From Myxococcota bacterium (GTDB lineage: Bacteria; Myxococcota_A; UBA9160; SZUA-336): a DNA stretch of 64,000 nt. The stretch is taken from contig JBBDXF010000029.1 in assembly GCA_040902485.1 (NCBI GenBank), positions 244,318 to 308,317 on the forward strand. The letters are read 5' to 3'. Numbering within the stretch: the stretch's first letter is position 1; each line of letters opens with the position of its first letter. Shown in pieces: positions 11,241 through 35,805 of this stretch. The notes beneath the pieces were generated by a model. That model ran no database searches and was not told where the DNA came from. It saw only the letters and a program-made list of their open reading frames with translations. Both the position numbers and the translations under genes were made by a program.

Positions 11241-11256
11241 TTGGAACACGTTCCAG
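11241..11256. promoter_or_regulatory. KstR-like palindromic operator TTGGAACACGTTCCAG, upstream of the secreted protein / LLM / acyl-CoA synthetase / hydrolase operon
   Basis: Imperfect palindrome matching TnnAACnnGTTnnA. The same motif recurs at 31386, 35745 and 35791. Confidence 0.5.
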
Positions 11257-11318
11257 TTAGCGCGACAAGCGTCTTCTCACGTCGGTGGGACGCGCGGCCG
11301 TCCGCGCGCCGCGACCCA

Positions 11319-12146
11319 TCAGAATTTCAGGCCGTAGTCGAGCCAGATGCACATGGAATGGGCGGTGCGCATGCCGGCGCGCTCCATGTTGGCCTGGCTA
11401 GTGCCGCCGAACGGCGTGGTGCTGATCACGTGACGGCAGCCCGCCGCTCTTGCATCGCGCCATCGACGCGAGATCAGCGCGGCTTGCGCGCCGCGCCCGC
11501 GCGCTTCGGGCAGCGTCGCCGACACGCACAGGTAGCCGACGTCGCCGTGCAGGTAGAGTCCGCCGCACGCGATCGGCTCGCCGTCGAGCAGCGCCAGGTA
11601 GCGCTCCATGCCGGGCACGCTGAACCAGGCCGCGCGCATGCGCTTCACGTCGCTCATCAGGAATTCGGGCAGCGCGAAGCCGCGCGCCCACAGCTCGAGG
11701 AACAGCTCCAGCTCCTCGAAGGGCGACGACCGCACCAGCACCGCCGAAGCGCGCGGCGCGATCAACGCTTCGATCGGCGCGTGCACGGCGCTCTCGATGC
11801 GCTCGACGCCGACGCGCTCGATCGCGAGCTGCAGCGCGAGCGCGGAGGTGAGCTCCGCGGGTCCGATCTCGAAGCGCGCGCGGATGCCGCGCGAGCGGAA
11901 GAAGTCGAGGATCTCGGGAATCGCGCGCGCGTCCTGCAGCTCGAGCCCGACCACGCGGTTGTACCACTCGACCATCGCGAGCTTGGCCGAGAGCGTGGCG
12001 GTCGCGCGGCCGAAGCGTTGGATCTCGACCTCGAACGGATTGCCCTCGAGGGCGGCCGTCGCGCGCATGCCCTCGACGTGCAGCGCCTCGTGCGCGAGCG
12101 CGAGCTTGCGCGCGAGGGCGATCGAGCTGACGGGCGCGTCGGCCAT
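11319..12146 (-). CDS. GNAT family N-acetyltransferase
   Basis: C-terminal acetyl-CoA binding region (…RGRGAQAALISRR…). Start at MADAPVSS. The upstream part of the 564-aa track ORF is Arg-rich antisense junk. Confidence 0.6.
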   Translation of the reverse strand: MADAPVSSIALARKLALAHEALHVEGMRATAALEGNPFEVEIQRFGRATATLSAKLAMVEWYNRVVGLELQDARAIPEILDFFRSRGIRARFEIGPAELTSALALQLAIERVGVERIESAVHAPIEALIAPRASAVLVRSSPFEELELFLELWARGFALPEFLMSDVKRMRAAWFSVPGMERYLALLDGEPIACGGLYLHGDVGYLCVSATLPEARGRGAQAALISRRWRDARAAGCRHVISTTPFGGTSQANMERAGMRTAHSMCIWLDYGLKF

Positions 12147-12169
12147 CGCTTGCCGGGCCGCGCCGGGCG

Positions 12170-12844
12170 TCACTCGAGCTCGAAGTTGATCTTGGTCTGG
12201 CGCAGCGCCGGGAGTGCGCTGCGATCGGTCAAGCCGAGCATGGTCGGGTCGATGCGCGCGCGCGAGATGGCATCGATCGCGGCGCCGCCGAGCAGCGGGT
12301 GCGGCGCGGAGAGCACACGGATCTGTGTCGCCTGGCCGTCCTCGTTCACCTGGAACGCGACCACCACGGTTCCGCCCACACCCAGGCCGAGCGCGAGATC
12401 CGGATAGCGGATGTCGGGATACTCGAGCACGACCTCCTCGAGGAAGCCCCACTCGGCCAGGTCGTCGCCACCGGCCTCGGGCGCGTTCGCGGCCGCGTCG
12501 ACGTCGAGCCGCTGCACCGCCGCGCGCGCCTGCGCGACCAGCTCGCTGGTCGGGTACTGATCGACGACGTAGCGGTAGTGCGCCTCGGCCGGCTCGCGCT
12601 GCCCGAGCGCCTCGAGGCAGCGTCCGCGCAGCACGAGCGCCCGGGCCGCGACCTGCGGGTCGAGATTCGCGCTGGCTTCCGCGAGCTCGGTCGCCTGCAG
12701 CGCCTTCGCGTAGCGGCCCGCGTCGTAGAAGCGCTGTGCCTTGGCCAGCGCGGCCTGGCGCGGGTCGCGAACGGTCGCGCAGCCGGCGCACAGAAGCGCG
12801 AGAACCGAGACCAGTACGCCGGTGGCGAGGATGCGTGTCTTCAT
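12170..12844 (-). CDS. lipoprotein with TPR-like region and TonB C-terminal domain
   Basis: MKTRILATGVLVSVLALLCAGC is a lipobox. The C-terminus (YPDLALGLGVGGTVVVAFQVNEDGQATQIRVLSAPHPLLGGAAIDAISRARIDP) resembles the TonB_C fold. Confidence 0.6.
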   Translation of the reverse strand: MKTRILATGVLVSVLALLCAGCATVRDPRQAALAKAQRFYDAGRYAKALQATELAEASANLDPQVAARALVLRGRCLEALGQREPAEAHYRYVVDQYPTSELVAQARAAVQRLDVDAAANAPEAGGDDLAEWGFLEEVVLEYPDIRYPDLALGLGVGGTVVVAFQVNEDGQATQIRVLSAPHPLLGGAAIDAISRARIDPTMLGLTDRSALPALRQTKINFELE

Positions 12845-13113
12845 GGTGGGCGGCCTCCGCGACTCGATCGCGAAGCGTATCGGTGTCACCCCGCCGCGGC
12901 TTTTGCGCGCGGGCGCGCGCGTCGCGCCCGGCCGCCAGCGTCGGTTGACAAGCGCGACGATGATGAACAGCTGCGGCCGATCGCGACCGGGCGTTTCCGC
13001 CGAGAACGTCCATGCGCTGCGCTCGCTCGGCGTGACCGCGATGCGGCTCGACGCGAAATTCGGCGGGCTCGGCATGGGTCCCGAGGCGCTACGCTGGCGG
13101 GTCCCGCGGGGAC

Positions 13114-14284: not shown

Positions 14285-15553
14285 TCAGCCGCGCGACGGC
14301 CGGGTCTGCGCCTGCTGCTGCTGTTGCTCGTGCCGGAGTCGCTGCGCCTTCAGGAACGTCAGATAGCTCTCGGCCGCGCGCCGGACCTTCTCGTCGCCCG
14401 AGGCCACGCGGAACGCGCGCTCCGCTTCGTCGAAGCGATCGGAGCCGAGCTGCGCGACGCCGATCAGGAGCTGAACCGAGCCGCGCTGGTCGGGCTTCGA
14501 CTTGGCGAGCGCCTTCTCGAGCGCCTCGATCGCGGGCGCGAAGCGCTCGCGCTGCAGGTACATCTGGCCGAGCAGCATGTACATGTCGCCGTCGGTCGCG
14601 AGCTCGCCCGCCTTCGCGAGTGGCTCGAGCGCCTTGTCGTTGTCGCGCGCCGCGATGTAGCAGTTCGACATCAGCTTGTACGACTCGGCGTCGGGCTTCA
14701 CCACCTCAGACGCCATGCCCATCTCGATCACCTGCGCGCACTCGTAGGGCTGCTGGCGCAGGAAGAGCAGGCGCGCGAGCTGGCGCACTTCCTTGTCCTC
14801 GCGCAAGAGCTTCGCTTCGTTGGCGAGCTGCAGCGTCGCCAGCGCCCTGGCCTCGCGCTCGAGATGCTTCTGCACCGCGGCGAGCTGGACCCAGTACTGC
14901 GGCTTGCCGGGCGAGATCGCGATCAGCTGCTCGAGCGTCGCCGCCACGTTCGGGTAGTCCTTCTGCTGGCTGTAGATCACGACCAGCAGCGCCACCCAGC
15001 TCTCGCGCGGCTCGGGGCTGAGCTCGACCGCTCGTCTCGCGGGCTCGACGGCCTCGGCGAAGCGCTCCTGCTGCACCAGGATCATCGCCTTCAGGTAGTA
15101 CGCGTCGGGCTTCGGGCTCTGCGCCGCCTGGAACCAGATGTTCATCAGCGCCAGCGCGGAGTCGTACCGGCCGACCTGGGTGTAGATCTGCGCGAGCGAG
15201 TAGATCATCACCTGCTCGGCTTGCGGATCGAGCGCCTTCTGCGCGAGTGACTTCTCGAACTCGGCGGCGGCCTGCTCGCTCATGCCCTTGTTCACGTAGA
15301 TGTAGCCGCGGAAGCGGTGGATCTGCGCGATCTCGGGGGCCTTGAGCCGGCGGCGCTCGGCGAGGTCGTTCACGAGCGCGAGCGACTCGTCGTACTCGTC
15401 GTTCTGCAGCAGCTCGTAGGCCGCGAGCAGCTTCTCCGCGACCGGCTTGCTGATCCCGGTGCCCTTGGCCTTGGCGTCCGCGCGCGCCGCCGTCGGCGCG
15501 AGGAGCAGAGCCAGCGCGAGCGCGGCCACGCCGAGGATCCTGGAGCCCGTCAT
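14285..15553 (-). CDS. TPR-repeat protein (TtpD-like, last gene of the TonB2-type cluster)
   Basis: Signal peptide followed by multiple TPR-like helical repeats. Immediately downstream of tonB. Confidence 0.7.
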   Translation of the reverse strand: MTGSRILGVAALALALLLAPTAARADAKAKGTGISKPVAEKLLAAYELLQNDEYDESLALVNDLAERRRLKAPEIAQIHRFRGYIYVNKGMSEQAAAEFEKSLAQKALDPQAEQVMIYSLAQIYTQVGRYDSALALMNIWFQAAQSPKPDAYYLKAMILVQQERFAEAVEPARRAVELSPEPRESWVALLVVIYSQQKDYPNVAATLEQLIAISPGKPQYWVQLAAVQKHLEREARALATLQLANEAKLLREDKEVRQLARLLFLRQQPYECAQVIEMGMASEVVKPDAESYKLMSNCYIAARDNDKALEPLAKAGELATDGDMYMLLGQMYLQRERFAPAIEALEKALAKSKPDQRGSVQLLIGVAQLGSDRFDEAERAFRVASGDEKVRRAAESYLTFLKAQRLRHEQQQQQAQTRPSRG

Positions 15554-15557
15554 GTCC

Positions 15558-16202
15558 CTACCCCTTCATCTTGAAGCGCACGACCACCTGCTGGCCCGGA
15601 GCCTCGGTGGGCTTGCCCGCCTGCATCTGCGGCTGGTATTTCCACTTGTTCACGGCCTGCAGCGCGTTGCGCTCGAACACCGCGTCGCTCGACTGGATCA
15701 CGGCCGCGTCCTTGACCGAGCCCGCGGTCGAGATCGTGAAGCGCACCTGCACCCAGCCCTCGAGCTTGCGACGCTGCGCCTGCGGCGGGTACTGCGGCTC
15801 GACGCGCACGAGCGGGAGCGGCGCGCGATCGGCGAGCCCGGCGTTGAAGCCGAGTCCGCCCATGCCGGTGCCGTCCCCACCGCCGCCGCCAGCAGAGCCG
15901 AACTCGGCGCCGAGCCCCGCGGCTAGCGCTTGCACGTCGAGCGCGGCGTCGAAGCCCTCCTCCTTCGCGACCGACAGCGTCGGCGTGACCGGCGCCTGTT
16001 GCGGCTTCTCGCGCTCGGGCTTCTCGCGCTTCTTCTCCTCGATCTCGGTCTCGCGGCGCAGGCGCACGAACTCGACCTTGGTCACGGCCGACGCCTGGTC
16101 GTGCGCGCCGCGCGCGTTGGTCAGCGCGCGCATGAAGCCGAACAGTCCCACCGTCACGAGGAACGCGAGCGCGAGCGCGATCGGGAAGCGGAGCATCGCC
16201 AC
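15558..16202 (-). CDS. tonB: energy transducer TonB
   Basis: N-terminal TM segment, a Pro/Glu/Lys-rich spacer (EKKREKPEREKPQQAPV), and a C-terminal TonB domain (EGWVQVRFTISTAGSVKDAAVIQSS). Confidence 0.75.
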   Translation of the reverse strand: MAMLRFPIALALAFLVTVGLFGFMRALTNARGAHDQASAVTKVEFVRLRRETEIEEKKREKPEREKPQQAPVTPTLSVAKEEGFDAALDVQALAAGLGAEFGSAGGGGGDGTGMGGLGFNAGLADRAPLPLVRVEPQYPPQAQRRKLEGWVQVRFTISTAGSVKDAAVIQSSDAVFERNALQAVNKWKYQPQMQAGKPTEAPGQQVVVRFKMKG

Positions 16203-16205
16203 GCC

Positions 16206-16622
16206 TCACTCGCCCCCCACGCTGGCCGCGCCGATCGCGACCTGCTTGATGCCGCCGAGCGTGACCTCGTCCATCACCTGCGCGAGCAGGCCGCTCTTGG
16301 CGGCCTTATCGGCGATCACCACCACGGTGTCCTCGGGCCGCTCGATGTGCAGCCGCTCGATCAGCGGCCGCACCTCGCGCAGGTCGACCTGGCGCCAGTC
16401 CATCCAGACCTCGCCGTTGGAACGGATCGCGATCAGGATGTTGCCGGAGTCGTCGTGCGTCGCGGTGAGCGCTTCCGCGCGATTCACCGTGACGCCCGCC
16501 TCGCGCACGAACGAGGTGGTGACGATGAAGAAGATCAAGAGGTTCAGGACGAAGTCGAGCATCGGCGCGAGGTCGATGCCGTGTTCGTCAGCGGAGCTGT
16601 CGGCGTGCCGGCGCGAGCGCAT
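16206..16622 (-). CDS. exbD: biopolymer transport protein ExbD/TolR
   Basis: DLAPMLDFVLNLLIFFIVT is a canonical ExbD TM motif. 138 aa. Confidence 0.8.
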   Translation of the reverse strand: MRSRRHADSSADEHGIDLAPMLDFVLNLLIFFIVTTSFVREAGVTVNRAEALTATHDDSGNILIAIRSNGEVWMDWRQVDLREVRPLIERLHIERPEDTVVVIADKAAKSGLLAQVMDEVTLGGIKQVAIGAASVGGE

Positions 16623-16625
16623 GAC

Positions 16626-17039
16626 TCACCTCGATGAGGTTCCGAAGGACACGTTCTCGACGCCACCCTGGCGCACCTGATCGATCACCGCGACCAAGAG
16701 CCCCGTCTCGGCGTTCTGCTCGGCCGTGACCCTCACGCCCCAGTCCGGTCTTTGGGCGTGCAGGCGCTCGACGTTGGCGCGCACCGCGCGCACGTCGACC
16801 TCGCGGCTGTCGACGAGCACTTCGCCCGACTGCTTGACGACGACGGAGATGCTGCCGGTCTCCTTGCCGACGGCCGGCCCGCCCGCGCCGCCGCCGTGGC
16901 GGCCGACGTTCATGCCGACCTCCTTCACGAAGACGGCCGTGATGATGAAGAAGATCAGCAGGTTCAGGACGAAGTCGAGCATCGGCGCGAGGTCGATGCC
17001 GGTCGAATCCTCGTGATCGAAGTGTCTGCGCAGCCGCAT
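16626..17039 (-). CDS. exbD: biopolymer transport protein ExbD/TolR (second copy)
   Basis: Paralog with the same DLAPMLDFVLNLLIFFI motif. 137 aa. Confidence 0.8.
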   Translation of the reverse strand: MRLRRHFDHEDSTGIDLAPMLDFVLNLLIFFIITAVFVKEVGMNVGRHGGGAGGPAVGKETGSISVVVKQSGEVLVDSREVDVRAVRANVERLHAQRPDWGVRVTAEQNAETGLLVAVIDQVRQGGVENVSFGTSSR

Positions 17040-17040
17040 G

Positions 17041-17577
17041 TCAGTACACCAGCCGGTCGCCGAGCAGCTCCGTCTCCCGGCGGATGCGCGACGTGAAGTA
17101 GTAGACGGGATACAGGCCGGTGATGCTGACCATCAGCCCGGTGAGCGTGCAGATCATCGCCATCGAGACGCCGCTGGCCATCGCGCGCGCGTCTGCGGAG
17201 CCGCGGATCGCCATCGAGTCGAACACCTCGAGCATGCCGCTCACCGTGCCGACCAGGCCGAGCAGCGGCGAGAGCGGCACCAGCACGCGCAGCAGCACCA
17301 GGTTCGCGTTCATCGCCGTGTTGACGCGCGAGATCGTCGCGCGGCGGATCTGGCGCGCGCACCACGAGCGGTGCTCGCCGCGCGCCTGCCAGGCGGCCAG
17401 CGCGTCGCGCGCCTGCTTCGGCAACACCAGCGCGAAGTACCAGGCGCGCTCGATCACGAGCGTCCACATCACGAAGCCGCACAGGAAGATGCCGACGACG
17501 AACGGACCGCCCTCGTCGATCAGGCTCGCGACGGCGCCGAGCGGCCAGAGCAGCGCCTCGACGGCGTTCTCAAGCAT
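17041..17577 (-). CDS. exbB: MotA/TolQ/ExbB proton channel protein
   Basis: Three TM segments and the conserved LGLVGTVSGM motif. 178 aa. Confidence 0.8.
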   Translation of the reverse strand: MLENAVEALLWPLGAVASLIDEGGPFVVGIFLCGFVMWTLVIERAWYFALVLPKQARDALAAWQARGEHRSWCARQIRRATISRVNTAMNANLVLLRVLVPLSPLLGLVGTVSGMLEVFDSMAIRGSADARAMASGVSMAMICTLTGLMVSITGLYPVYYFTSRIRRETELLGDRLVY

Positions 17578-18937
17578 GCTGCGTCACTTCGCGGTGTCGC
17601 TCGAGACTCTCCGCCAGCAGCCCCGTGCTCTGCTCGTCGAGGATCTGCACGACCTGGCGCGAGAGCGAGGCGAGGCCCGCGTTCATGAACAGGAGCGGCA
17701 CGGCGATGCCGAGACCGAGCACCGTCGCGATCATCGCCTGACCGATGCCGTCGGCCATCAGCCGCGGATCGCTCGAGCCCGACTCGGTGATGCTCTGGAA
17801 GGTGATGATCATGCCGACGACCGTGCCGACCAGTCCGAGCAGCGGCCCCGCCGCCACCGCGAGGCGCAGGAAGGCCTGGAAGCGCTCCAGGCTCGGCACC
17901 TCGCGCAGCACCGCTTCGGAGATGCGCAGCTCGACCACCTCCGCGTCGGCCTCGATGTTCGCCGGGTCCGCTTTCACCGACGCCAGCACGCGGCCGAGCG
18001 GGTTGTCGTTCGAGAGCTGGTCGAGCCGGCCGAGCTGGCGCGTGACCGCGAGGCGCGTGCGGGTGAGGAAGAACGCCTGGTACGACGCGAGCAGGAAGCC
18101 GAGCACGCCGACGGCGATGATCACGTAGCCGACCGCCTCGCCCTTCTCGATGCGCTCCCACAGGTTCGGCCGCTGCACGATCATCGAGAGCAGCACGCCG
18201 CGCGACGGATCGACGGCCGCTGCCACGTAGCCTGCCTTTGCGGCCTGCAGGTTCCTCGCGAAGCTCACCAGGTCCGCGCCCGGCTGTCGCGAGAGCACGC
18301 TGAGTGAGCCGACGCTGGGCAGATAGCTGAGATAGCGGCCCTCCGACATGGCGATGAAGCCGCCGATGCGCACGACCTCGGCGTCCTGCGGCTTGCCGTC
18401 GGCGTCGACGATCGTGGTGCGGAAGCGCACGACCTGACCGCTCTCGGTCATCTCGCGCTGGATCTCGTACCAGAGCCGCTCGAGCTCCGCGATCGACGGC
18501 AGCTCCTTGGCCTTGCCGAGCCCCGCGAAGAACTCGTCGCGCTTGGGGAACTGCGCGCTCAAGAGCGAGTTGTACAGGATCGCCGAGCCGTCGCCGGCCA
18601 CCTGGCGCACCACGCCGAACAGCTCGCCGAGGCTGCCGAGGCGCTGGGTCATGCGCTCCTCGAGCTCCGCGAGCTTGACCTCGTTCGCGTCGAAGGTCGT
18701 GGAGAGCGCCTTGCTGCGCGCCTCGGCCGCGTCGCGCTCGCGCACGGCCTCGGCGAGCAGCGAAGCTTGTTTCTCGCGATTGGCGAGGAACGCCTTCTCG
18801 CGCGCGGCGTTCTCGCTCGCCTTGGCCGCGCGCGTGGTGCGCGTCTGCTCGAGCAGCTCGTCGAGGGATTCGACGGCGAAGGCGCGGCTCTCACCGAGCG
18901 CGAGCAGCAGCGCGATCGCGAGCGCGAGGGCCGACAT
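17570..18937 (-). CDS. MotA/TolQ/ExbB family protein with large N-terminal periplasmic coiled-coil domain (TtpC-like)
   Basis: Signal peptide MSALALAIALLLALG, a ~260-aa coiled-coil region, then the ExbB core (LGLVGTVVGMIITF). The upstream part of the 711-aa track ORF is rejected. Confidence 0.7.
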   Translation of the reverse strand: MSALALAIALLLALGESRAFAVESLDELLEQTRTTRAAKASENAAREKAFLANREKQASLLAEAVRERDAAEARSKALSTTFDANEVKLAELEERMTQRLGSLGELFGVVRQVAGDGSAILYNSLLSAQFPKRDEFFAGLGKAKELPSIAELERLWYEIQREMTESGQVVRFRTTIVDADGKPQDAEVVRIGGFIAMSEGRYLSYLPSVGSLSVLSRQPGADLVSFARNLQAAKAGYVAAAVDPSRGVLLSMIVQRPNLWERIEKGEAVGYVIIAVGVLGFLLASYQAFFLTRTRLAVTRQLGRLDQLSNDNPLGRVLASVKADPANIEADAEVVELRISEAVLREVPSLERFQAFLRLAVAAGPLLGLVGTVVGMIITFQSITESGSSDPRLMADGIGQAMIATVLGLGIAVPLLFMNAGLASLSRQVVQILDEQSTGLLAESLERHREVTQHA

Positions 18938-18942
18938 GCGCT

Positions 18943-19725
18943 TCACGACTTCGCCTCCTTCGGCGCGGGCACGGGCAGGATCAGCAGCTCGGGCGCGCGC
19001 GTCTTGCGCGCCACCGCGAGGCCTTCCTCGAAGCTGTGGCCGTAGTCGTCGTCGACGACCCAGGTCTGCGCGCGCGCGTCCCAGTAGCCGGTCTCCCGGC
19101 CGTCGAGCGTCTGGTACAGAAGCGCCGCGCGGCCGACGCGCAGGAACTGCACCGTGCGTGCATCGGCCGCGTCGCCGAGCTTCGCCTCGTAGGCCTCGAT
19201 CGTGCGCCCGTAGTCCATCTCCACCTGATACGCCTCGACGATGCGGCGGAACTTCTCGGAGATCGTCACGTCCGCGCGGCTCATCATCTGCTCGAGCCTC
19301 GCGACGCGATCGCGACGCTCCTCGAGCAGGAACGGCACGTCGAGCGCCACGAACTGCTCGAGCGTCGCGAGCATGCGCGTCATCAGCGGCGCGACCTCGC
19401 GCGAGGTCGTCTCGACCTCCACCAGCTGCGCTTGCATCCCGTTCATCTCGGTTTTCTGCGATTCGACCTGCGCCTCGAGCTGCCTGGCGTAGATCGTGTA
19501 GCTCTCGGCGTCCGCGAGCGCGCGCCGATACTCGGAGAGCAGCTTCTGGGTCTCGTCGTCGAGCTGGTTGATGCGCTCCTGCGACGCGCGCGCGGCCGCG
19601 TCGGTCGCGATCTGCTCCTTCACGACGCGGTCGAGCGCGTCCGCCGCCTGGGCGCCCGCGTGCATCGGTGCCAGCCAGAGCGCGCAGAGCAGCGCGATCC
19701 CCCACTTCATCGCCTGGTACTCCAT
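18943..19725 (-). CDS. DUF3450-like periplasmic coiled-coil protein (TtpB-like)
   Basis: Signal peptide, coiled-coil region, and a C-terminal DGRETGYWD…WVVDDDY segment. First gene of the TonB2-type cluster. Confidence 0.6.
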   Translation of the reverse strand: MEYQAMKWGIALLCALWLAPMHAGAQAADALDRVVKEQIATDAAARASQERINQLDDETQKLLSEYRRALADAESYTIYARQLEAQVESQKTEMNGMQAQLVEVETTSREVAPLMTRMLATLEQFVALDVPFLLEERRDRVARLEQMMSRADVTISEKFRRIVEAYQVEMDYGRTIEAYEAKLGDAADARTVQFLRVGRAALLYQTLDGRETGYWDARAQTWVVDDDYGHSFEEGLAVARKTRAPELLILPVPAPKEAKS

Positions 19726-19828
19726 CTACGAATGGTCGGTCGGAACGTAGGCGGATCGCTTGGCGTCGGAGGCTCGGATCCGTGGAGAAATCGTGAGCAA
19801 CCGTGACGGAACGACGACGATCTCGCGG

Positions 19829-20605
19829 TCAGTGCCCGGCGGCTCCCGGCGCGGACGCCGTGGTGGCGGCAAAGGCGACGTCGAGCGCGGCCGAAAGCTC
19901 CGCCGTGACGTCCGGGCTCCACGCGCGCTCGAGCAGCACGCGGCCCTCGCGGGTCAGCAGGACGACCGCGGGAACCTTCACACCGTCTTTCAGAAGCGAA
20001 CGCGTGTACGACTCGGAGAGGTGGTCGTACACGAAGGGCACCGTCCACTTCAGGGCCCGGAGCTTCTCCCGCAGCGCCGGATCGGGGTGCTCGCCCTGCG
20101 GAAACAGGATGGTGGCCAGGCCGTGGCGCTCGTGGAGCGGTGACAGCGCGGCGACGATCGAGGCGAACTCGGCCTGGCCCGGATCGGCGAACACGCACAC
20201 GAACCCGGGCTTCTCCGCGACGGTCGCGAACGGGTACGGTCGCAGCTCGTCGGAGCCGGAGTCGACGAGCCGTGGACCGAGGGCGAGCACGAAGTTCGGA
20301 GCGGCCTTCTCGAGCAGGCCGGTGCGAATCTGATTTGCGCGGACGACCAGATCCGTGTCCGACACCGGAATGGTTCGCTTGCCGTCGCGCCCGAAGTCGA
20401 GCCGCGCGAGGCCACCCTGTTCGACGCGGATCAGCACGCCCAGCGAGCCATCCGCAGTGAGCGCCGTCTGGTAAGGCCAGAAGCGCTCGTTCTCGAGCAG
20501 CGTCGCCTCCGTGACGACCGGCGCTCGCGGGTCGGCGACGAGATGCTCGGGCAGCTCCGTGACGACTGGAGCTGTCGCGAGCGCGAGCAACAACAGGCTA
20601 CGCAT
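19829..20605 (-). CDS. secreted hypothetical protein
   Basis: Start at the MRSLLLLALATAPVVT signal peptide. No recognisable catalytic motif. Confidence 0.4.
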   Translation of the reverse strand: MRSLLLLALATAPVVTELPEHLVADPRAPVVTEATLLENERFWPYQTALTADGSLGVLIRVEQGGLARLDFGRDGKRTIPVSDTDLVVRANQIRTGLLEKAAPNFVLALGPRLVDSGSDELRPYPFATVAEKPGFVCVFADPGQAEFASIVAALSPLHERHGLATILFPQGEHPDPALREKLRALKWTVPFVYDHLSESYTRSLLKDGVKVPAVVLLTREGRVLLERAWSPDVTAELSAALDVAFAATTASAPGAAGH

Positions 20606-20681
20606 CTTCGAACTCCAGCGCAGAAATGGGAACCGCCACCCCGAAGGGTGGCGGCTCCGCAGTTCCGGAAGGTGTCGGGGA

Positions 20682-21488: not shown

Positions 21489-21577
21489 TCAACCTTTTTC
21501 GTCTTGTGGTTCTGGTTCCGGAAGGCCTCGGATCGGACGAGACGCTTCCAGATCGTCGTTCGAGTCAGCGCCCGATC

Positions 21578-26400: not shown

Positions 26401-26746
26401 CCTCGCCCGCCGTCACGGCGAAGCTCGTCATCAGCGAGACGCGGTAGCCCGACTTGGTGAACTTCACGCTGTAGCTGCCCGCGGGAACCCGCGGGAACTC
26501 GTAGGCGCCGGTCGCATCGGTGACCTGCTCCAGCTCGCGCGCAGCTCCTCCCGCGGCGCCGGGCGAGGGCGAGAGCGTCACCTTCACGCCCTCGATCGGC
26601 GCGGCGGACTCGCTGTCGATCAGCTGGCCGCGGATGCTGCCGGGAGCGGGTGGGGCTTCTTGCGCCCACGCCCGCGGCGCGAGCACGAGCGCGCACGCGA
26701 GCAAGAGAAGCCCGATGCGTGGGAGGGGAAGCTGGGTCGTCATCAC
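23468..26746 (-). CDS. TonB-dependent receptor with N-terminal carboxypeptidase-regulatory-like domain
   Basis: 1092 aa. Signal peptide, a CarbopepD_reg-like region (GQLIDSESAAPIEGVKVTL…TDATGAYEF), a plug domain, a long beta-barrel, and a C-terminal aromatic residue. Confidence 0.8.
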   Translation of the reverse strand: MMTTQLPLPRIGLLLLACALVLAPRAWAQEAPPAPGSIRGQLIDSESAAPIEGVKVTLSPSPGAAGGAARELEQVTDATGAYEFPRVPAGSYSVKFTKSGYRVSLMTSFAVTAGEVNRADFPLPPLPPQATEEMPGFEEFVVEASPMEEILAASRMESDELLNTLNAAEFAKFAASDVADALKFVPGVNVVEGQFAIIRGLEDRYSSTLYNSAVVPSPDPDSQSVQLDLFPSDIVTNLVVAKTFGPNLPSNSSGGSINILTNEYPESFEIKFSAGSGWNSNAVDDFYELNGGSPTGSQTDGWDTAESDFGMSIGGRGSLFEREIRFKAIGASEVDYQTGEGTESAAEPQRAATAPVPIPGGLSLGELALSDGTFDLTESEESKQKTGYAGLGFDLDPDGAHTIDANYFYTEKKDKTVQLYQNGWFEGFDYGPLAERQANNDDVFVSSFDGTATRSSWIARSIRANTGEPVTRGPLFGDSFAESDSFDVTRDLVVYQLNGDHSIGALDGLHLSWAANTARTSQTEESLGARYFYEPDDLSQVPTTFPSTVDSLGPGRFYVNDGIFASSNDVHEKQSFARADVAYEFDLSSALRLKLDGGYWYEHAKRDVESDFLESPTVSGSSQFALSCETAECLGSTIGTDLDLEPNGQFSGARDSENDSSRDIQAGNFGAKLTIWDDLDLLAGARWESILIESNNDPFTGEPALDGTPAIFPTKYLFFDRLDNPARGEGTPNADATYNDQLLGIAVPIDPSTGLVDLADEDEIRSFIDGEIDEHRVLPAFGFTYRPLEGLNLRGAYSQTVARPSFRELGYYVSVEPGSDDLIVGNPQLQLSDVVSYDLRTEYSWGETGDLAAFSVFYKTIDDPIESIIIRNPLNSEGSSSALFRTFFNNPSEARLYGVEVEGRKNLGFLGPDFAQYFSIGGNFTYIDAKVDRTDAELARANAFFGAPDGVPVRFSSYEKDRRLFGQPEWIANVDLSYDNPDWGTKITLSYFAISEILDAAGSAATSQNGEILSLTLDRYLDSFDQLNLVVSQTWQVNALGGDVTLKGNVKNLTDSERRVIYDEEQTRGTVVERSLKLGLDYSISLTYSLSF

Positions 26747-26890
26747 GGCGTGCGCGGATCAGAGCGCAGCGATGCGAGGGTGCCAGGACGACCTCGTGAG
26801 AGATCCGAGGCGATTCGACGACGAGCCGGAGAGCGAGCGCACGGTGACGATCGCGTGACGCCGCGGACCGCCGTGCCCGCGCGCCCTCGC

Positions 26891-26916
26891 GAGATTCACA
26901 TCATTGCTTCACAGAG
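26891..26916. promoter_or_regulatory. direct repeats TGTGAA-N5-TGTGAA (read on the opposite strand) upstream of the response-regulator/ppk genes; possible Pho-box-like site
   Basis: gagATTCACAtcattgcTTCACAgag lies about 20 nt upstream of the response-regulator ATG, with 11-bp periodicity reminiscent of PhoB boxes. Confidence 0.25.
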
Positions 26917-29912: not shown

Positions 29913-31376
29913 GTGGGAGTGAAGGTCTATCTGGTTCGCCATGCGAAGGCGCAGCGTCGCCTCGGCTGGGAACATGCCGACGGCATGCGTCCGCTCTCGC
30001 CCGCCGGTCAGGACCAGGCGCTCGGTCTGGTCGAGCGCTTCGACGGGGTTCCGGTCGAGCGCGTGGTCTCGAGCCCGGCGCTGCGCTGCCGTCAGACGGC
30101 CGAGCCGATCGCGGCGCGCTTCGGCCTGGCTGTCGAAGTCGACGCGCGCATCGCCGAGGGGGCGAGCTTCTCCGGCGCGCTGTCGCTCGTGCGCTCGCTC
30201 GACAGCGCGCCCGCGGTGCTGTCGTGTCACGGCGATCTGATTCCGGCGCTGGTCGAGAAGCTCGTACCCGGCGCGCTCGAGATGGAGGGCGGCGCCGGCT
30301 GCCCGAAGGGCTCGACCTGGCTCTTGCAGGACGGCGCCAGCGGACGCGCGCGCGCCTCGTACCTTCCGCCGCCGCGCGCCGGCGCCGCGACGCCCGATCT
30401 CGACACCAAACAGCGTATCGCGATCGTCGACCTCGGCAGCACCTCGTTCACGCTGCTGGTCGCGGACGTCACCGCCGACGGTCACATCGTGCGCGTCTCG
30501 CGCGAGCGCGAGATGCTGCGGCTCGGCTCCGCGCTCGCTCAGGACTCGAAGTTCTCGGACGAGCTGTGCGACAAGGCGGTCGAGGGCGCGCGCAGGCTCG
30601 GCCGGCTCGCGGATCGCGCGGGCGCCCAGGAGCTGGTCGCGGTCGCGACGTCCGCGATGCGGGATGCGAAGAACGGACGCAAGCTCGCCGAGCGCATCAG
30701 CCGCGCAATCGGCAGCGAGGTGCGGATCCTGCCCGGCGAGGAGGAGGCGCGCCTGATCTTCACCGCCTTCCGGCGCCGCGTCGGTCTGGGCGAGGAGAAC
30801 GCGCTCGGCCTCGACCTGGGCGGGGGGAGCCTCGAGCTCGCGGTCGGCAACGCCTCGGGGCTGCGCTTCGAGACCACGCTGCGGCTCGGCGTCACGCGCC
30901 TGCACGGGGAGCTGGTGAGGTCCGACCCCATGACCGCCGGGGAGGTGCGCGCGGTGCGCGCGCGCGTCGAGGACGCGCTCGACCCGATCGCCGGTCGCTT
31001 GCGCGCGCTCGGCGCGGTGCGCTGCATCGGGGCGGGCGGCACCGTGCGCGCGCTCGCGCGGCTCCTGCTCGGCATTCCCGACGATGCGCCCGCCGCGGAT
31101 CTGCGCGGACTGCTGGTCTCGGCGGACGACTTCGACGGGCTGGCCAAGCGCCTGTCGCGCTCGAGCCACGACGAGCGGCTCGAGCTCCCGGGCATCGACG
31201 AGAAGCGCGCGGACCTCTTGCCGACCGGTGCGGTGATCATGTCGAGCCTGCTCTCGCGGCTGTCGCTGCAGGGCCTGATGATCTGCGACTGGGGGCTGCG
31301 CGAGGGCGTGATCCTCGACGCGCTGGCGGCGCGCGCGTTCGAGCAGCCGCGCGGAGGCGTGTTCCAAGCCGGTTGA
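29913..31376 (+). CDS. fusion protein: SixA-like histidine phosphatase domain + Ppx/GppA exopolyphosphatase domain
   Basis: N-terminus VYLVRHAKA…CHGDL (RHG phosphatase family, SixA-like). Residues ~165-487 are a Ppx/GppA ASKHA fold (IAIVDLGSTSFTLLVAD…LGGGSLELAV). GTG start. Confidence 0.75.
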   Translation: MGVKVYLVRHAKAQRRLGWEHADGMRPLSPAGQDQALGLVERFDGVPVERVVSSPALRCRQTAEPIAARFGLAVEVDARIAEGASFSGALSLVRSLDSAPAVLSCHGDLIPALVEKLVPGALEMEGGAGCPKGSTWLLQDGASGRARASYLPPPRAGAATPDLDTKQRIAIVDLGSTSFTLLVADVTADGHIVRVSREREMLRLGSALAQDSKFSDELCDKAVEGARRLGRLADRAGAQELVAVATSAMRDAKNGRKLAERISRAIGSEVRILPGEEEARLIFTAFRRRVGLGEENALGLDLGGGSLELAVGNASGLRFETTLRLGVTRLHGELVRSDPMTAGEVRAVRARVEDALDPIAGRLRALGAVRCIGAGGTVRALARLLLGIPDDAPAADLRGLLVSADDFDGLAKRLSRSSHDERLELPGIDEKRADLLPTGAVIMSSLLSRLSLQGLMICDWGLREGVILDALAARAFEQPRGGVFQAG

Positions 31377-31385
31377 CCGGCGCGT

Positions 31386-31401
31386 TTGGAACACGTTCTA
31401 A
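31386..31401. promoter_or_regulatory. KstR-like operator TTGGAACACGTTCTAA, upstream of the acyl-CoA dehydrogenase alpha/beta pair
   Basis: Same motif as at 11241 and 35745/35791, about 28 nt upstream of the ATG at 31429. Confidence 0.5.
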
Positions 31402-31402
31402 T

Positions 31403-31425
31403 GCGGGTCTTCTCGAGGAGAAGAC
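31403..31425 (+). promoter_or_regulatory. perfect 10-bp-stem hairpin (GGGTCTTCTC-GAG-GAGAAGACCC) enclosing the GAGGAG Shine-Dalgarno of the downstream acyl-CoA dehydrogenase gene
   Basis: Seen directly in the sequence. The stem ends 3 nt before the ATG at 31429. No U-tract follows, so it is unlikely to be a terminator. Confidence 0.4.
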
Positions 31426-31428
31426 CCG

Positions 31429-32607
31429 ATGTACATCGATCTCACGCCCGAGCTCAAGATCCTGCGTGAGCAGCTGCGCGGCTACTTCGCGAAGCTGATG
31501 ACCAAGGAGCTGCAGGCGGAGCTCTCCGCTGGCGGCGAGGGCGGCGGGCCCGAGTACCGCAAGGCCATGAAGACGATGGGCCGCGACGGCTGGCTCGGCA
31601 TCGGCTGGCCCAAGGAGTACGGCGGCCAGGACCGCACGCCGCTCGAGCAGTTCCTGTTCGCGGACGAGGTGCAGCGCGTCGGCTTCCCCCTGCCCTTCCT
31701 GACGCTCGGCACCGTCGGCCCGACGCTGATGGCGTACGGCGACGCCGAGGTGAAGACGGAGATCCTGCCGCGCATCCTCGCTGGCGATCTGCACTTCGCG
31801 ATCGGCTACTCCGAGCCGGGCGCGGGCACGGACCTGGCGTCGCTCACCACCAGCGCGGTGCGCGACGGCGACGAGTGGGTGATCAACGGGCAGAAGACCT
31901 TCACCAGCCTGGCCGACTTCGCAGACTTCATCTGGCTCGCGGCGCGCACGGATCCCGACGCGAAGAAGCACCGCGGGATCTCCATCTTCATCGTGCCGAC
32001 CACCGCGCCGGGCTTCAAGCTGACGCCGATCTGGACGATGGCGGACGTGCGCACGAACGCGACCTACTTCGACAACGTGCGCGTGCCGGCGCGCTACCTG
32101 ATCGGCGGCGAGAACAACGGCTGGGGACTGATCACCAACCAGCTCAACCACGAGCGCGTGTCGCTGTTCCCGATCGGCCCGTTCGAGCGCCTGCAGGCCG
32201 ACGTGCAGCGCTGGGCGAAGGCGACCCTGCTCGCCGACGGGCGGCGCGTGATCGACCAGCCGCACGTGCGCCGCAACCTGGCGAGGTGCCACGCGGGCGC
32301 GGAGGCGTTGAAGCTGATGCTCTGGAAGCAGGCGTGGACGCTCACGCACTCGCGCCTGCACCCGGCCGAGGCGTCGACCGTGAAGGTGTACGCGTCGGAG
32401 TTCTTCGTCGAGGCGTACCGGCTGCTGATGGACGTGTTCGGCGCCATCGGCAAGCTCAAGCCGCGCTCGCCGGGCGCGGTGCTCGCGGGCCGCGTCGAGC
32501 GCAGCTACCGCGCCGCGCTGATCCTGACCTTCGGAGGTGGCACCAACGAAGTCCAGCGCGACATCATCGCGATGGCCGGCCTGCAAATGCCGCACTACAA
32601 GGCCTAG
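31429..32607 (+). CDS. acyl-CoA dehydrogenase family protein (alpha subunit-like)
   Basis: ACAD N-terminal, middle and C-terminal domains (…GISIFIV…, …FGGGTNEVQRDIIA…). Confidence 0.85.
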   Translation: MYIDLTPELKILREQLRGYFAKLMTKELQAELSAGGEGGGPEYRKAMKTMGRDGWLGIGWPKEYGGQDRTPLEQFLFADEVQRVGFPLPFLTLGTVGPTLMAYGDAEVKTEILPRILAGDLHFAIGYSEPGAGTDLASLTTSAVRDGDEWVINGQKTFTSLADFADFIWLAARTDPDAKKHRGISIFIVPTTAPGFKLTPIWTMADVRTNATYFDNVRVPARYLIGGENNGWGLITNQLNHERVSLFPIGPFERLQADVQRWAKATLLADGRRVIDQPHVRRNLARCHAGAEALKLMLWKQAWTLTHSRLHPAEASTVKVYASEFFVEAYRLLMDVFGAIGKLKPRSPGAVLAGRVERSYRAALILTFGGGTNEVQRDIIAMAGLQMPHYKA

Positions 32608-32614
32608 TGTCGAG

Positions 32615-33733
32615 ATGAACTTCGCCTACAGCGACGACCAGAAGGCGCTCTCGGAGCTCGCGCGCAAGATCCTGGCCGACAAGGCCACGCACGAGCGGAT
32701 CGGCGCGATCGAGAAGAGCGAGCACGGATTCGATTCCGAGCTGTGGGCCGAGTTGGCCAGGGCGAACCTGCTCGGCGCGTGCCTGCCCGAGGAGTTCGGC
32801 GGCAGCGGGCTGGGCGTGATCGAGCTGTGCCTGCTGCTCGAGGAGATCGGCCGAGCCGTCGCGCCGGTTCCCTACTGGGCCACGCTCACGCTCGGCGCGC
32901 TGCCGATCGCGGAGTTCGGCAGCGCTGCGCAGAAGGCCGCGTTCCTGCCGGGCGTGAGCGCGGGCGAGCTCGTGCTCTCGGGCGCGTTCGAGGAGGCCGA
33001 CGCCGACGACCCCGCGCGGCCGTCCACGCGCGCGCTGCGCGACGGCACGGCGTGGCGCCTCTCGGGCACGAAGATCTGCGTGCCGGCGGCACAGATCGCC
33101 GCACGCGTGCTGGTGCCGGCGAGCGTCGGCCGCGGGCGCGTCGGTCTGTTCCTGGTCGATCCGAAGGGACCGGGCGTGAAGCTCGAGATGCAGCGCGCGA
33201 CCAGCCGCGAGCCGGTCGCGACGCTCCGGCTCACGCGCGCGCGCGTGAAGGCCGAAGACGTGCTCGGCACGCTCGCACGCGGGAAAGAGATGCTCGCGTG
33301 GATCTGCGAGCGCGCGATCACGGGGCTGTGCGCGATGCAGGTCGGCGTGGCCGATCGCGCGCTGCGCATGACCGCGCTCTACACGAGCGAGCGCAAGCAG
33401 TTCGACCGGCCGATCGGCAGCTTCCAAGCCGTGCACCAGCGCGCGGGCGACGCCTACGTGAACATCGAGGCGATGCGGCTGACCATGCAGCAGGCCGCGT
33501 TCCTGCTCGCCGAGGGCCGGCCGGCCGCGGATGCGGTCTCGGTCGCGAAGGTCTGGGCGGCCGACGGCGGCAACCAGGTGACCTACGCGGCGCAGCACCT
33601 GCACGGCGGCATCGGCATGGACAACGACTACCCGCTGCACCGCTCCTATCTGTGGACGCGGCAGATCGAGCTCACGCTCGGCTCCGCCTCGCGCCACCTC
33701 GAGCGACTCGGCGACGCCATCGCGGAGGCCTGA
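32615..33733 (+). CDS. acyl-CoA dehydrogenase family protein (beta subunit-like, adjacent paralog)
   Basis: ACAD fold (…QFDRPIGSFQAVHQRAGDAYVNIEAMRL…YAAQHLHGGIGMDNDYPLHR). Start 8 nt after the stop of the previous ACAD. Adjacent ACAD pairs suggest a heterotetrameric enzyme. Confidence 0.8.
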   Translation: MNFAYSDDQKALSELARKILADKATHERIGAIEKSEHGFDSELWAELARANLLGACLPEEFGGSGLGVIELCLLLEEIGRAVAPVPYWATLTLGALPIAEFGSAAQKAAFLPGVSAGELVLSGAFEEADADDPARPSTRALRDGTAWRLSGTKICVPAAQIAARVLVPASVGRGRVGLFLVDPKGPGVKLEMQRATSREPVATLRLTRARVKAEDVLGTLARGKEMLAWICERAITGLCAMQVGVADRALRMTALYTSERKQFDRPIGSFQAVHQRAGDAYVNIEAMRLTMQQAAFLLAEGRPAADAVSVAKVWAADGGNQVTYAAQHLHGGIGMDNDYPLHRSYLWTRQIELTLGSASRHLERLGDAIAEA

Positions 33734-33740
33734 CTCTCCG

Positions 33741-34925
33741 TCAGGCCTTGCCGCGCTCCGAGAGCCCGAGCGCGTTCTCGCGCATGATCATGCGCACCTC
33801 CTTTGCCGAGAAGCCCTCGAGCTCGTGCACGAAGGCGGCGGGCTCGGCGATGCCCTCGGCGTGCGGGAAGTCGGAGCCCATGATCATGCGGTCGGCACCC
33901 ACCAGCCCCGCCATGCCGCGCAGGTCCTCTTCCTGGAACGGTGACACCCAGACGTGTCGGCGGAAGGCCTCGACCGGATCCACCGCGTACGCGCGGGGCG
34001 ACTGGCCGTAGCTCTTGGCGAGCTTGCGCAAGAGCTCCCGCACCCAGTCGGAGCCCATCTCGATCGTCGCCATGCGCAGGCCCGGGAAGCGGTCGAAGAC
34101 GCCGTGGCAGATCAGCGCCGCGAAGGTGTCGAAGGGCGCACGGTCGGCGGTGATCAGGCCGCGCAGCGGCGTGCTGACGAAGGCGCGGAAGTCCGCTCCC
34201 TCGCCCCAATCCTCGGCGTAGCGGTTGTAGCCGCTGTCGCCGCCGTGGAAGGCGACCACGACGCCGGCCTCCTGCGCGCGCGCCCAGAACGGGTCGAAGA
34301 GCGGATCGCCGAGCGAGCGGCTGCCGTCGCGTGTGGCCACCGGCGCCGCGCGCAGGCACACCAGCCGCGCGTCGCGCTCGAGCGCCCATTCGAGCTCGGC
34401 CACGGCGTTCCTCACGTCGGCCAGCGTGATCATCGGCGCGCCGTACAGGCGCTCGCGGTAGCTGAAGCCCCAGTCGTCGTGCAGCCACTGGTTGAAGGCG
34501 TGGAACGCCGCGCACAGCGCCTCGGTGTCCGCCTTCAGCGCCTCTTCCATGCCGACGCCGAGCGTCGGGAACAGGAACGCGCGCTCCAGACCCTGCGTGT
34601 CCATCACCCGCAGCCGCTCGTCGCGTTTGCGGTAGGCGGGGTCGATCGGCTCGAGCTCGCCGAACAGCTCGCGCATCGAGAGACCCTGCGGATTGCGGCC
34701 GCGGTAGAACTGGTCGAGGCAGCCGGGCTTCGCGACCGGATCGAAGGTCGGATTCGGGATGAAGCGGTTCAGCTTGCCCGCGACCAGCAGGCTCTTGCGA
34801 CCGTCGACCGTCGCCCACTGCACGGCGCGCTTCGCCATGCGTGGGTCGATGTGACGCGTGAACGCGTCCTCGGCCTCGTAGTAGTGGTTGTCCGCGTCGA
34901 AGATGCCGAAGTCGAGCTGGGCCAT
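33741..34925 (-). CDS. amidohydrolase-2 family protein (metal-dependent hydrolase/hydratase, ACMSD-like)
   Basis: Start at MAQLDFGIFDADNHYYE (the Amidohydro_2 N-terminal DxHxH-type motif), HGGD, and a C-terminal GSDFPH. The upstream part of the 670-aa track ORF is rejected. Confidence 0.7.
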   Translation of the reverse strand: MAQLDFGIFDADNHYYEAEDAFTRHIDPRMAKRAVQWATVDGRKSLLVAGKLNRFIPNPTFDPVAKPGCLDQFYRGRNPQGLSMRELFGELEPIDPAYRKRDERLRVMDTQGLERAFLFPTLGVGMEEALKADTEALCAAFHAFNQWLHDDWGFSYRERLYGAPMITLADVRNAVAELEWALERDARLVCLRAAPVATRDGSRSLGDPLFDPFWARAQEAGVVVAFHGGDSGYNRYAEDWGEGADFRAFVSTPLRGLITADRAPFDTFAALICHGVFDRFPGLRMATIEMGSDWVRELLRKLAKSYGQSPRAYAVDPVEAFRRHVWVSPFQEEDLRGMAGLVGADRMIMGSDFPHAEGIAEPAAFVHELEGFSAKEVRMIMRENALGLSERGKA

Positions 34926-34936
34926 CGCCACTCCCG

Positions 34937-35737
34937 TCAGCGTCCCTTGTACACCGCTTTGCGTTTCTCGGCGAAGGCGCGCGGGCCCTCCTTCGCGTCC
35001 TCGCTGGCGAAGATCGGCCAGCCGAGCTCGAGCTCCTTCTCGAGCGCCTCGCCTTCCGGCATGCTCTGGTCGTACAGGCGCAGCGACTTCAGGATCGCCT
35101 GCACCGAGAGCGGGCCGTTCTCGCACAGCGTCTCCGCGATCTTGCGCGCCTCCGCGAGCGCGCTTCCGGTCGGCACGACGCGGCCGATCAGACCGAAATC
35201 CCTGGCCTCCTGCGCGGTCACGTGGCGCGCGGTGAGCAGGATCTCCGCCGCCAGCGTGTACGGGATCTGCCGGCGCAGGCGGATCGTCGAGCCGCCGAGC
35301 GGGAACAGGCCGCGCTTCGCCTCGGTCACGCCGAACACCGCGGACTCGCCGGCCACGCGGATGTCGGTGCCCTGCAGGATCTCCGTGCCGCCCGCGACCG
35401 CGTAGCCCTCGACCGCAGCGATGATCGGCTTCATTGGCCGGTTGTGGCGCAGCAGCGCCTGCCAGTGCAGGTCGGGCACCTCCTGCATGCGCTTCTGCAT
35501 CTCCTCGTCGGGCTTCTGCTCGCGGCCCATCGTCTTCAGGTCGGCGCCGGCGCAGAACGTGCCGCCCGCCCCGGTCAGGATCGCGCAACGCAGATCTGCG
35601 TCGCGGTCGAGCCGTCGCCAGGCCTCGTACATGCGCCAGAGCATGTCGGGCGAGAGAGCGTTCTTCGCCTCGGGTCGGTTCATGGTCACGACCAGGACGT
35701 GACCCTCCTGCTCGACGATGGCGTGGGGCGAGCTCAT
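34937..35737 (-). CDS. enoyl-CoA hydratase/isomerase (crotonase family)
   Basis: [15 protein letters not shown]…[16 protein letters not shown]…[15 protein letters not shown] is the crotonase signature. Start at [10 protein letters not shown]. Confidence 0.85.
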
Positions 35738-35744
35738 CGCGCGA

Positions 35745-35805
35745 TTGGAACACGTTCCAAACAGGCGCTCAACCGTGTTGCGAGCCCGGATAGAACGTGT
35801 TCTAA
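35745..35805. promoter_or_regulatory. two KstR-like operators (TTGGAACACGTTCCAA at 35745-35760 and TAGAACGTGTTCTAA at 35791-35805) in the divergent enoyl-CoA hydratase / P450 intergenic region
   Basis: The second site matches the mycobacterial KstR consensus TAGAACGTGTTCTA exactly. Both sit between divergent starts at 35737 and 35813. Confidence 0.55.

Follow-up and report, generated by a model that had tools for sequence, protein, structure and literature searches.

The locus and its four palindromes

The 64,000-nucleotide stretch analysed here (the window; 70% G+C) comes from a Myxococcota bacterium (GenBank assembly GCA_040902485.1, contig JBBDXF010000029.1, positions 244,318 to 308,317). 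It contains four near-identical palindromes of 14 bp, all intergenic and 5′ of genes whose best matches are enzymes of sterol side-chain catabolism. The palindromes fit the operator of the mycobacterial repressor KstR, and together with the genes behind them they suggest a KstR-type regulon. The preliminary description of this DNA had placed four KstR-like palindromes in the promoter regions of these genes. All four were present at the positions it gave, to within one base, and all are upstream of the genes it named. They are given here with their scores on a position weight matrix (PWM) of KstR sites.

11242-11255, minus strand: operator 1, TGGAACACGTTCCA, PWM score 23.8
31387-31400, plus strand: operator 2, TGGAACACGTTCTA, PWM score 25.4
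35746-35759, minus strand: operator 3, TGGAACACGTTCCA, PWM score 23.8
35791-35804, plus strand: operator 4, TAGAACGTGTTCTA, PWM score 27.0

Genes were called from codon-position G+C and named by Pfam, NCBIfam and PDB sequence searches; the family assignments below rest on best-hit scores and not trees. The genes behind the operators are the following.

6765-7913, minus strand: beta-lactamase-fold serine hydrolase/esterase, LipL-like (LipL model 251 bits, below cutoff), last gene of the operator 1 operon
7970-9643, minus strand: acyl-CoA synthetase, steroid-CoA-ligase-like (CasG/FadD19 type; model NF052580)
9643-10515, minus strand: luciferase-like oxidoreductase of the F420-dependent LLM class TIGR03619 (235.6 bits, cutoff 166.9)
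10512-11156, minus strand: secreted 'choice-of-anchor V' protein with a signal peptide and a CTSCH motif (NF041895, 86.8 bits, cutoff 42)
31429-32607, plus strand: acyl-CoA dehydrogenase (ACAD) subunit of ChsE4 (FadE26) type (4x28_A, 466 bits, full length)
32615-33733, plus strand: ACAD subunit of ChsE5 (FadE27) type (Tcur3481, 6wy8_A, 316 bits; ChsE5, 4x28_D, 206 bits)
33741-34931, minus strand: Amidohydro_2 metal-dependent hydrolase of mycobacterial type (4dzi, 388 bits), in an operon with the hydratase
34937-35737, minus strand: enoyl-CoA hydratase, EchA19-like (PRK07799, 400.1 bits, cutoff 316)
35813-37024, plus strand: cytochrome P450, CYP125 family (steroid C26-monooxygenase type) by best-hit scores

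Behind operator 1 lies an operon on the minus strand in which stop and start codons overlap, the start of the LLM gene and the stop of the secreted-protein gene by 4 nt. Operators 3 and 4 share a 75-bp divergent intergenic region, with the hydratase gene on the left and the P450 gene on the right. Between the units of this set lie the housekeeping genes ppk, ppx, aat (Leu/Phe-tRNA protein transferase) and truD.

The palindromes match the mycobacterial KstR operator

We compared the four sites with an external standard, a PWM built solely from 47 published mycobacterial KstR sites. These are the motif instances from M. smegmatis and M. tuberculosis of Kendall et al. (2007), many of them validated by electrophoretic mobility shift assay (EMSA) or quantitative reverse-transcription PCR (PMC1995591). 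Applied to the window, this PWM picked exactly the four sites, with scores of 23.8-27.0; the next-best site in the window scored 11.0. On the same PWM the 47 mycobacterial sites score 24.0 in the median and at most 27.0, and random 64-kb Markov sequences contained 0.04 sites scoring 15 or more. At the PWM level the window palindromes are therefore indistinguishable from the KstR operator, in agreement with the preliminary description. That description had singled out the site at 35791 as an exact consensus match; it does fit the KstR core TnnAACnnGTTnnA, and so do the other three. All four have the KstR palindrome form GAAC-N2-GTTC.

Pattern counts gave the same picture. The degenerate pattern TDGAACRYGTTCHA has four exact matches in the window against about 0.001 expected from base composition. 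Allowing a single mismatch adds no site, and allowing two adds only two sites, both within coding DNA. The motif GAACNNGTTC occurs six times against 0.75 expected, and at least six occurrences were reached in 0 of 100 shuffles. Two further candidates, GAACTGGTTC and GAACAGGTTC at 22394 and 22457, were set aside as chance matches, being within a coding region and low-scoring on the PWM. No other copies of the palindrome were seen in the window, and no runs of T follow the four sites.

The operators lie within predicted promoters

Read toward the gene with a relaxed pattern, all four sites share the geometry TTGnnn-N17/18-TCYAAT, which gives the following predicted promoters.

11263-11268 and 11240-11245, minus strand: predicted promoter 1, TTGTCG-N17-TCCAAT
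31373-31378 and 31397-31402, plus strand: predicted promoter 2, TTGACC-N18-TCTAAT
35767-35772 and 35744-35749, minus strand: predicted promoter 3, TTGAGC-N17-TCCAAT
35778-35783 and 35801-35806, plus strand: predicted promoter 4, TTGCGA-N17-TCTAAT

In each case the palindrome covers the spacer, and its 3′ end contributes most of the predicted -10, so that the operator lies over the -10 at all four predicted promoters. Mycobacterial KstR palindromes likewise overlap a putative -10 region (Kendall et al. 2007; PMC1995591). This geometry would be what repression by promoter occlusion requires.

The predicted -10s of the hydratase gene (ATG at 35737) and of cyp125 (ATG at 35813) end 6 nt before the start codons, and neither gene has a Shine-Dalgarno sequence. 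For this reason the echA19-like and cyp125 mRNAs are predicted to be leaderless. More distant relatives (L004-L008 and L020 in our series of compared loci) have a GGAGG leader at cyp125 instead. Leaderless promoters with an embedded operator, as predicted here, are a small point of mechanistic interest.

A perfect 10-bp hairpin (GGGTCTTCTC-GAG-GAGAAGACCC, 31405-31427) lies downstream of operator 2 and ahead of the ATG of the ChsE4-like gene; it encloses the Shine-Dalgarno GAGGAG. It is kept, with one or two changes, only in the closest metagenome-assembled genomes (MAGs; L002, L003 and L076), and might modulate translation or terminate the ppx transcript.

The genes behind the operators resemble the mycobacterial regulon

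The P450 scored 488 bits against the reconstructed CYP125 ancestor (CYP125MRCA), 320 against CYP125A1, 295 against CYP124 and 240 against CYP142. By bit score it is thus closer to CYP125 than to CYP124 or CYP142, and of the earlier designation 'CYP125/CYP142-like' only the first half stood.

The ACAD genes lie side by side, the first matching one subunit of the alpha2beta2 enzyme ChsE4-ChsE5 and the second the other. ACADs acting on fatty acyl-CoAs scored far lower, at most 152 bits (against 466) for the first gene and 132 (against 316) for the second. The pair appears closest to a heteromeric dehydrogenase of ChsE4-ChsE5 type. The best model for the acyl-CoA synthetase was the steroid-24-oyl-CoA synthetase CasG (NF052580) at 709.6 bits, the next being a generic long-chain ligase at 362.5. 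The hydratase may be EchA19-like in function, its match lying below the level at which EchA19 membership would be established. The targets thus fall, by best scores, into families of known KstR regulon members (CYP125, ChsE4/ChsE5, EchA19-like and FadD19/CasG-like), as the preliminary description had proposed.

Its account of the operator 1 operon (FadD, LLM oxidoreductase, serine hydrolase) held for these three genes and left out the first one, which encodes the secreted choice-of-anchor V protein. The oxidoreductase is of the LLM type, in the class of Rv2161c (TIGR03619) and not that of Rv3520c. The choice-of-anchor V proteins are a myxobacterial surface-protein family without a known link to lipid catabolism; this member, which also has a weak Reeler match, could on its sequence features be an envelope or uptake component. 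We also considered its gene as a hidden regulator, which the secreted nature of the product ruled out. A second luciferase-like oxidoreductase is encoded elsewhere in the window (49568-50437, plus strand). With an F420-dependent class behind a KstR box, one may ask whether F420 is made or used in this lineage.

Operators and gene order are conserved among uncultured Myxococcota

The closest relatives of the P450 came from MAGs labelled Myxococcota, 'Myxococcales' and 'Deltaproteobacteria' (L002-L008 and L076; 81-95% identity), followed by L009 (72%), L010 (63%) and L020 (59%). Beyond these stood MAGs of Binatia, Chloroflexi and Acidimicrobiia at about 50-57% and Streptomyces at about 43%. An identical P450 was found on a Logan contig from run SRR27977660. 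The host lineage is one of uncultured, Gram-negative soil Myxococcota, which bears out the earlier view of a Gram-negative host.

The order ppk-ppx-box-ACAD-ACAD-(amidohydrolase, hydratase)-box-box-CYP125-aat, with the boxes in the same positions, recurred in L002-L008, L020 and L076 and on the metagenome contigs L119 and L136. The shorter contigs L140 and L146 repeat the boxed junction between hydratase and CYP125 genes. The P450s encoded in these loci share 66-95% identity with that of the window. Site positions and gene order are thus kept in at least 12 related genomes or contigs; L009 and L010 retain one box. L076 retains operator 1 as well, ahead of its orthologue of the secreted-protein gene. 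A metagenome scan with TRGAACRYGTTCYAATCG gave at least four further contigs of this cyp125 locus, with no regulator among the matches listed.

In an alignment of the hydratase/CYP125 spacer, conservation was 0.92 over the columns of operator 3 and 0.97 over those of operator 4, against 0.85 for the flanking coding DNA and 0.71-0.73 for the rest of the spacer, which also varies in length. The operators are therefore more conserved than the coding DNA that flanks them. In the ppx/ACAD spacer of eight genomes the conserved islands are the -35 region GTTGACC and the box with the -10.

In the actinobacterial loci L021, L026 and L029, cyp125 likewise has a KstR box in front of it, as it does in L014, a MAG of deep-sea 'Deltaproteobacteria'. 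In the distant Myxococcota genome L010 the boxed P450 gene is followed by two FadD genes, genes for SnoaL-fold proteins and one for a family-III CoA-transferase (alpha-methylacyl-CoA racemase family), an arrangement that fits a methyl-branched acyl-CoA substrate.

The CYP125 frame is fragmented in the long-read MAGs L020 and L076 (P450 region 10001-11210), probably through assembly indels rather than pseudogenisation.

KstR-family regulators accompany the box outside Mycobacteriales

We searched for the regulator with M. tuberculosis KstR, whose sequence was confirmed to be identical to PDB 5AQC, with a profile of distant KstR-like proteins and with the homologue from Candidatus Binatus. The collection searches returned thousands of PF17925 proteins, and the named organisms among the matches were Actinomycetota or Candidatus Binatus. 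The KstR box was present in the locus in five of seven genomic contexts of KstR-like regulators, in three of them in the regulator's own promoter.

In Candidatus Binatus (L204/L205; 6180-6330 and 10001-10618) an operon of P450, CoA-transferase and KstR-like TetR genes stands behind the boxes GAGAACGTGTTCTA and TAGAACGCATTCTA, divergent from a hydratase gene whose product is 57% identical to that of the window. The Binatus TetR scored 140.6 bits on the NCBI KstR model, against a cutoff of 280. L208 (4745-6633), also from Candidatus Binatus, has a P450-TetR operon behind TAGAACCGATTCTA. In the MAG L206 (5886-8594, 16018) an ACAD-ACAD-TetR operon lies behind TAGAACATGTTTCA and a P450 gene behind TAGAACACGTTCTA; its ACADs are 51% and 37% identical to those of the window, and the P450s of these box-bearing loci 45-47%. 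The regulator is the last gene of the boxed operon in all these loci. The pair of KstR and its box therefore exists well beyond Mycobacteriales, including in a Gram-negative phylum. Wherever box and regulator were seen together the regulator belonged to the PF17925/KstR family, and on this ground we assign the Myxococcota boxes, by inference, to a repressor of the KstR family whose gene lies elsewhere.

A second TetR family (TetR_C_29/CecR_C-like; 36-59% mutual identity) adjoins CYP125 in six loci (L011-L014, L023 and L027) of Binatia, Chloroflexi and 'Deltaproteobacteria' MAGs. Promoters of this family carry ACGAAC-N4-GTTCGT (L011:4430-4460, L027:9258-9300, L012:8134-8152, L013:8138-8160, L014:2331-2349), that is, the KstR half-site with a 4-nt instead of a 2-nt spacer. 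A KstR box was present in only one of the six loci, L014. Neither the window nor the related Myxococcota loci contained a member of the family. Given its own operator spacing and its absence from these loci, we judged it unlikely to bind the boxes.

In the window itself, the TetR gene at 52216-52977 was rejected as the cognate regulator: its product resembles known TetRs only at the level of the helix-turn-helix (HTH) domain and does not hit the KstR model, and no box lies upstream. The preliminary description had noted that no cognate regulator is adjacent and that the nearest TetR is this one. There is indeed no KstR-like TetR nearby, and the gene at 52216 belongs to a different family.

A KstR-type regulon and its alternatives

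We consider it likely, at a probability of about 0.7, that this is a conserved regulon of KstR type, present in an unexpected phylum and serving to activate sterol side chains. The four palindromes would be operators of one TetR-type repressor with KstR DNA specificity, most likely a KstR-family (TetR_C_20) protein encoded outside the window. Each operator would fill the spacer and -10 of a sigma-70-type promoter, so that the bound dimer would block RNA polymerase; this mechanism is suggested by the promoter anatomy together with the mycobacterial precedent. The four transcription units would carry out the entry steps of side-chain degradation, with CYP125 oxidising the chain end (C26), the FadD19/CasG-like ligase attaching CoA, the ChsE4-ChsE5-type heteromeric dehydrogenase introducing the alpha,beta double bond and the EchA19-like hydratase hydrating it. 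The amidohydrolase, the LLM oxidoreductase, the esterase and the secreted myxobacterial-type protein would be accessory.

In M. tuberculosis, KstR is released by 3-oxo- and 3-hydroxy-cholest-en-26-oyl-CoA thioesters. By analogy, it is plausible that a steroid-26-oyl-CoA made by CYP125 and the ligase frees the repressor here, in a feed-forward manner. Its genes lie dispersed among the housekeeping genes, where they have been stably retained. The motif with its statistics and conservation, its overlap with the predicted promoters and the enzyme families are read from the sequences; what the regulator is, what induces the system, that the substrate is a sterol and how complete the pathway is, ring degradation included, are inferred.

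Several results weigh against this interpretation. Neither the 64-kb window nor the stretches of about 20 kb that surround the P450 gene in 11 related Myxococcota genomes yielded a KstR-family gene, and of the PF17925 proteins returned by the KstR, profile and Binatus-seeded database searches none was attributable to Myxococcota. Searches with phmmer and hidden Markov models also found none in four shorter metagenome contigs of the lineage. Neither the window nor the related loci contained genes for a hydroxyacyl-CoA dehydrogenase, a thiolase or Ltp2/ChsH, or the ring-opening genes KshA, KstD and Hsa. Two of the enzymes fall short of their equivalog models, the synthetase at 709.6 bits against the NF052580 cutoff of 750 and the hydratase at 364.4 bits against the EchA19 (NF051848) cutoff of 400. 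The P450 matches CYP125A1 only modestly better than CYP124, a methyl-branched-lipid hydroxylase. Finally, promoters and transcription starts are predictions, and a strict sigma-70 consensus scanner called no promoter in 35650-35900, its rule requiring an A at position 2 of the -10.

A more ambitious version of the same idea is doubtful, though not far-fetched. It holds that the host has a complete sterol pathway controlled by KstR boxes and rebuilt for a Gram-negative envelope, with scattered genes, uptake through secreted or outer-membrane components such as the boxed choice-of-anchor V protein in place of Mce4 (no Mce4 genes were seen in the window or its relatives) and a regulator that may not be a KstR orthologue. 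If this were true, predatory or saprophytic myxobacteria would be unrecognised sterol degraders, and a whole cis-regulatory code would have been carried across phyla.

Less probable is a regulon that is real and acts on something other than sterols, such as phytanate-like acids, hopanoid or carotenoid side chains, long-chain fatty acids or another branched or isoprenoid lipid. Only omega-oxidation and the first cycle of beta-oxidation would then resemble the cholesterol pathway. The closeness of the CYP124 and CYP125A1 scores, the sub-cutoff ligase and hydratase and the missing ring-degradation genes would all suit such a substrate, and the mycobacterial KstR regulon itself also holds general lipid genes. 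Set against this, the P450 matches the reconstructed CYP125 ancestor by far the best, the two ACADs score much higher against the steroid-specific alpha2beta2 enzymes ChsE4-ChsE5 and Tcur3481/3483 than against any fatty-acyl enzyme, and the score of the steroid-24-oyl-CoA synthetase model for the ligase is well above that of the generic long-chain model (362 bits).

It is also rather improbable that the operators and genes are as described and the repressor is no KstR orthologue, another TetR or HTH family having converged on, or inherited, GAAC-N2-GTTC. The TetR_C_29/CecR_C-like family would be the candidate: besides its linkage to CYP125 in six loci, in L014 its gene and CYP125 diverge from an intergenic region that holds a perfect TAGAACACGTTCTA, and no KstR-family gene could be tied to Myxococcota. 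Its 4-nt operator spacing, the lack of a KstR box in five of its six loci, its absence from the window and the related Myxococcota loci and the consistent pairing of the box with PF17925/KstR-like regulators speak for a KstR-family repressor instead.

That the palindromes are non-regulatory, arising by chance or as a dispersed repeat (an element like repetitive extragenic palindromes, or terminator remnants), is effectively refuted, the silence of the consensus scanner in 35650-35900 notwithstanding, by the excess of exact matches, the identical promoter geometry upstream of genes at four of four sites, the retention of position across genomes while the flanking spacer diverged, and the lack of T-runs and of further copies in the window.

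Comparison with known systems

Rv3545c of M. tuberculosis has the established annotation cyp125. EMSA-positive KstR sites in that species lie at Rv3503c/Rv3504 (fadE26), Rv3515c (fadD19)/Rv3516 (echA19), Rv3520c/21 and Rv3545c/Rv3546 (PMC1995591). The gene families that flank these sites recur behind the window boxes, so that the match between the two regulons holds family by family. Like the M. tuberculosis and M. smegmatis regulon, the window set has an operator of the same PWM quality placed over the -10, two boxes in one divergent intergenic region, and targets in the cyp125, fadE26/27 (chsE4/5), echA19, fadD19-type ligase and LLM oxidoreductase families. It differs in its Gram-negative Myxococcota host, in the dispersal of its genes among housekeeping genes, whereas the mycobacterial genes form one large catabolic island, and in having neither mce4 nor kstR nearby. 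Further differences are the secreted choice-of-anchor V protein at the head of one operon, an LLM oxidoreductase of the Rv2161c rather than the Rv3520c class, and the leaderless promoters predicted for cyp125 and echA19.

The Candidatus Binatus and L206 operons share the box and related enzyme families with the window; unlike these operons and that of L208, which encode their regulator in cis, the window lineage has no cis regulator. The enzymes have full-length, high-scoring similarity to ChsE4-ChsE5 (PDB 4X28), Tcur3481/3483 (6WY8) and CYP125A1 (2X5W among others), and the ACAD genes are adjacent with one match per subunit, as in ChsE4-ChsE5. The window sequences stand nearer to a reconstructed ancestor than to any enzyme that has been characterised. 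The CYP125-linked TetR_C_29/CecR_C-like regulators have the GAAC half-site in common with the KstR box and differ in spacer length. KstR2, FadR (Bacillus/Thermus) and PsrA, likewise of TetR type, repress lipid or steroid catabolism until an acyl-CoA ligand frees them; the KstR2 box AnCAAGnnCTTGnT and the PsrA box AAAC-N2-4-GTTT differ from the KstR operator, and these repressors act on C/D-ring genes or on genes of general beta-oxidation.

That mycolic-acid actinobacteria break down the cholesterol side chain aerobically, under the control of KstR, is textbook knowledge. A 2025 study described CYP125 as dispersed within Actinobacteria, and a P450 survey notes it in deltaproteobacteria (PMC9148083). 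In the literature searched, no paper linked CYP125 with Myxococcota, and KstR and myxobacteria were mentioned together only in unrelated contexts; two broad surveys of steroid degraders (PMC4810484, PMC5790920) make no mention of Deltaproteobacteria or Myxococc*. The preliminary description had called such a regulon unexpected in a Gram-negative bacterium. CYP125 as such had already been noted in deltaproteobacteria by that P450 survey.

A conserved KstR-type regulon in soil Myxococcota, if confirmed, would add to the organisms by which sterols are turned over. The PWM and the gene set could be used for mining MAGs for the remaining pathway, and the locus would be a natural experiment in which an operator code was retained after a move to another phylum, promoter type and cell envelope.

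A rearrangement at the locus and a repeat elsewhere

In L076, truD directly adjoins ppk (1861-5299). The window has about 12.6 kb of extra DNA between these genes (about 14285-26900), among it a gene for a TonB-dependent receptor of 1092 aa with a CarboxypepD_reg domain. Two units of the regulon are here set apart by an insertion or rearrangement specific to the lineage.

The 18-mer TAGAACATGTTCTAATCG was found on at least about 90 low-GC metagenome contigs (37-49% G+C; L083-L202, e.g., Ga0056108_* and Ga0209259_*). These contigs come from a few related metagenomes, and the shared sequence is apparently an unrelated dispersed repeat.

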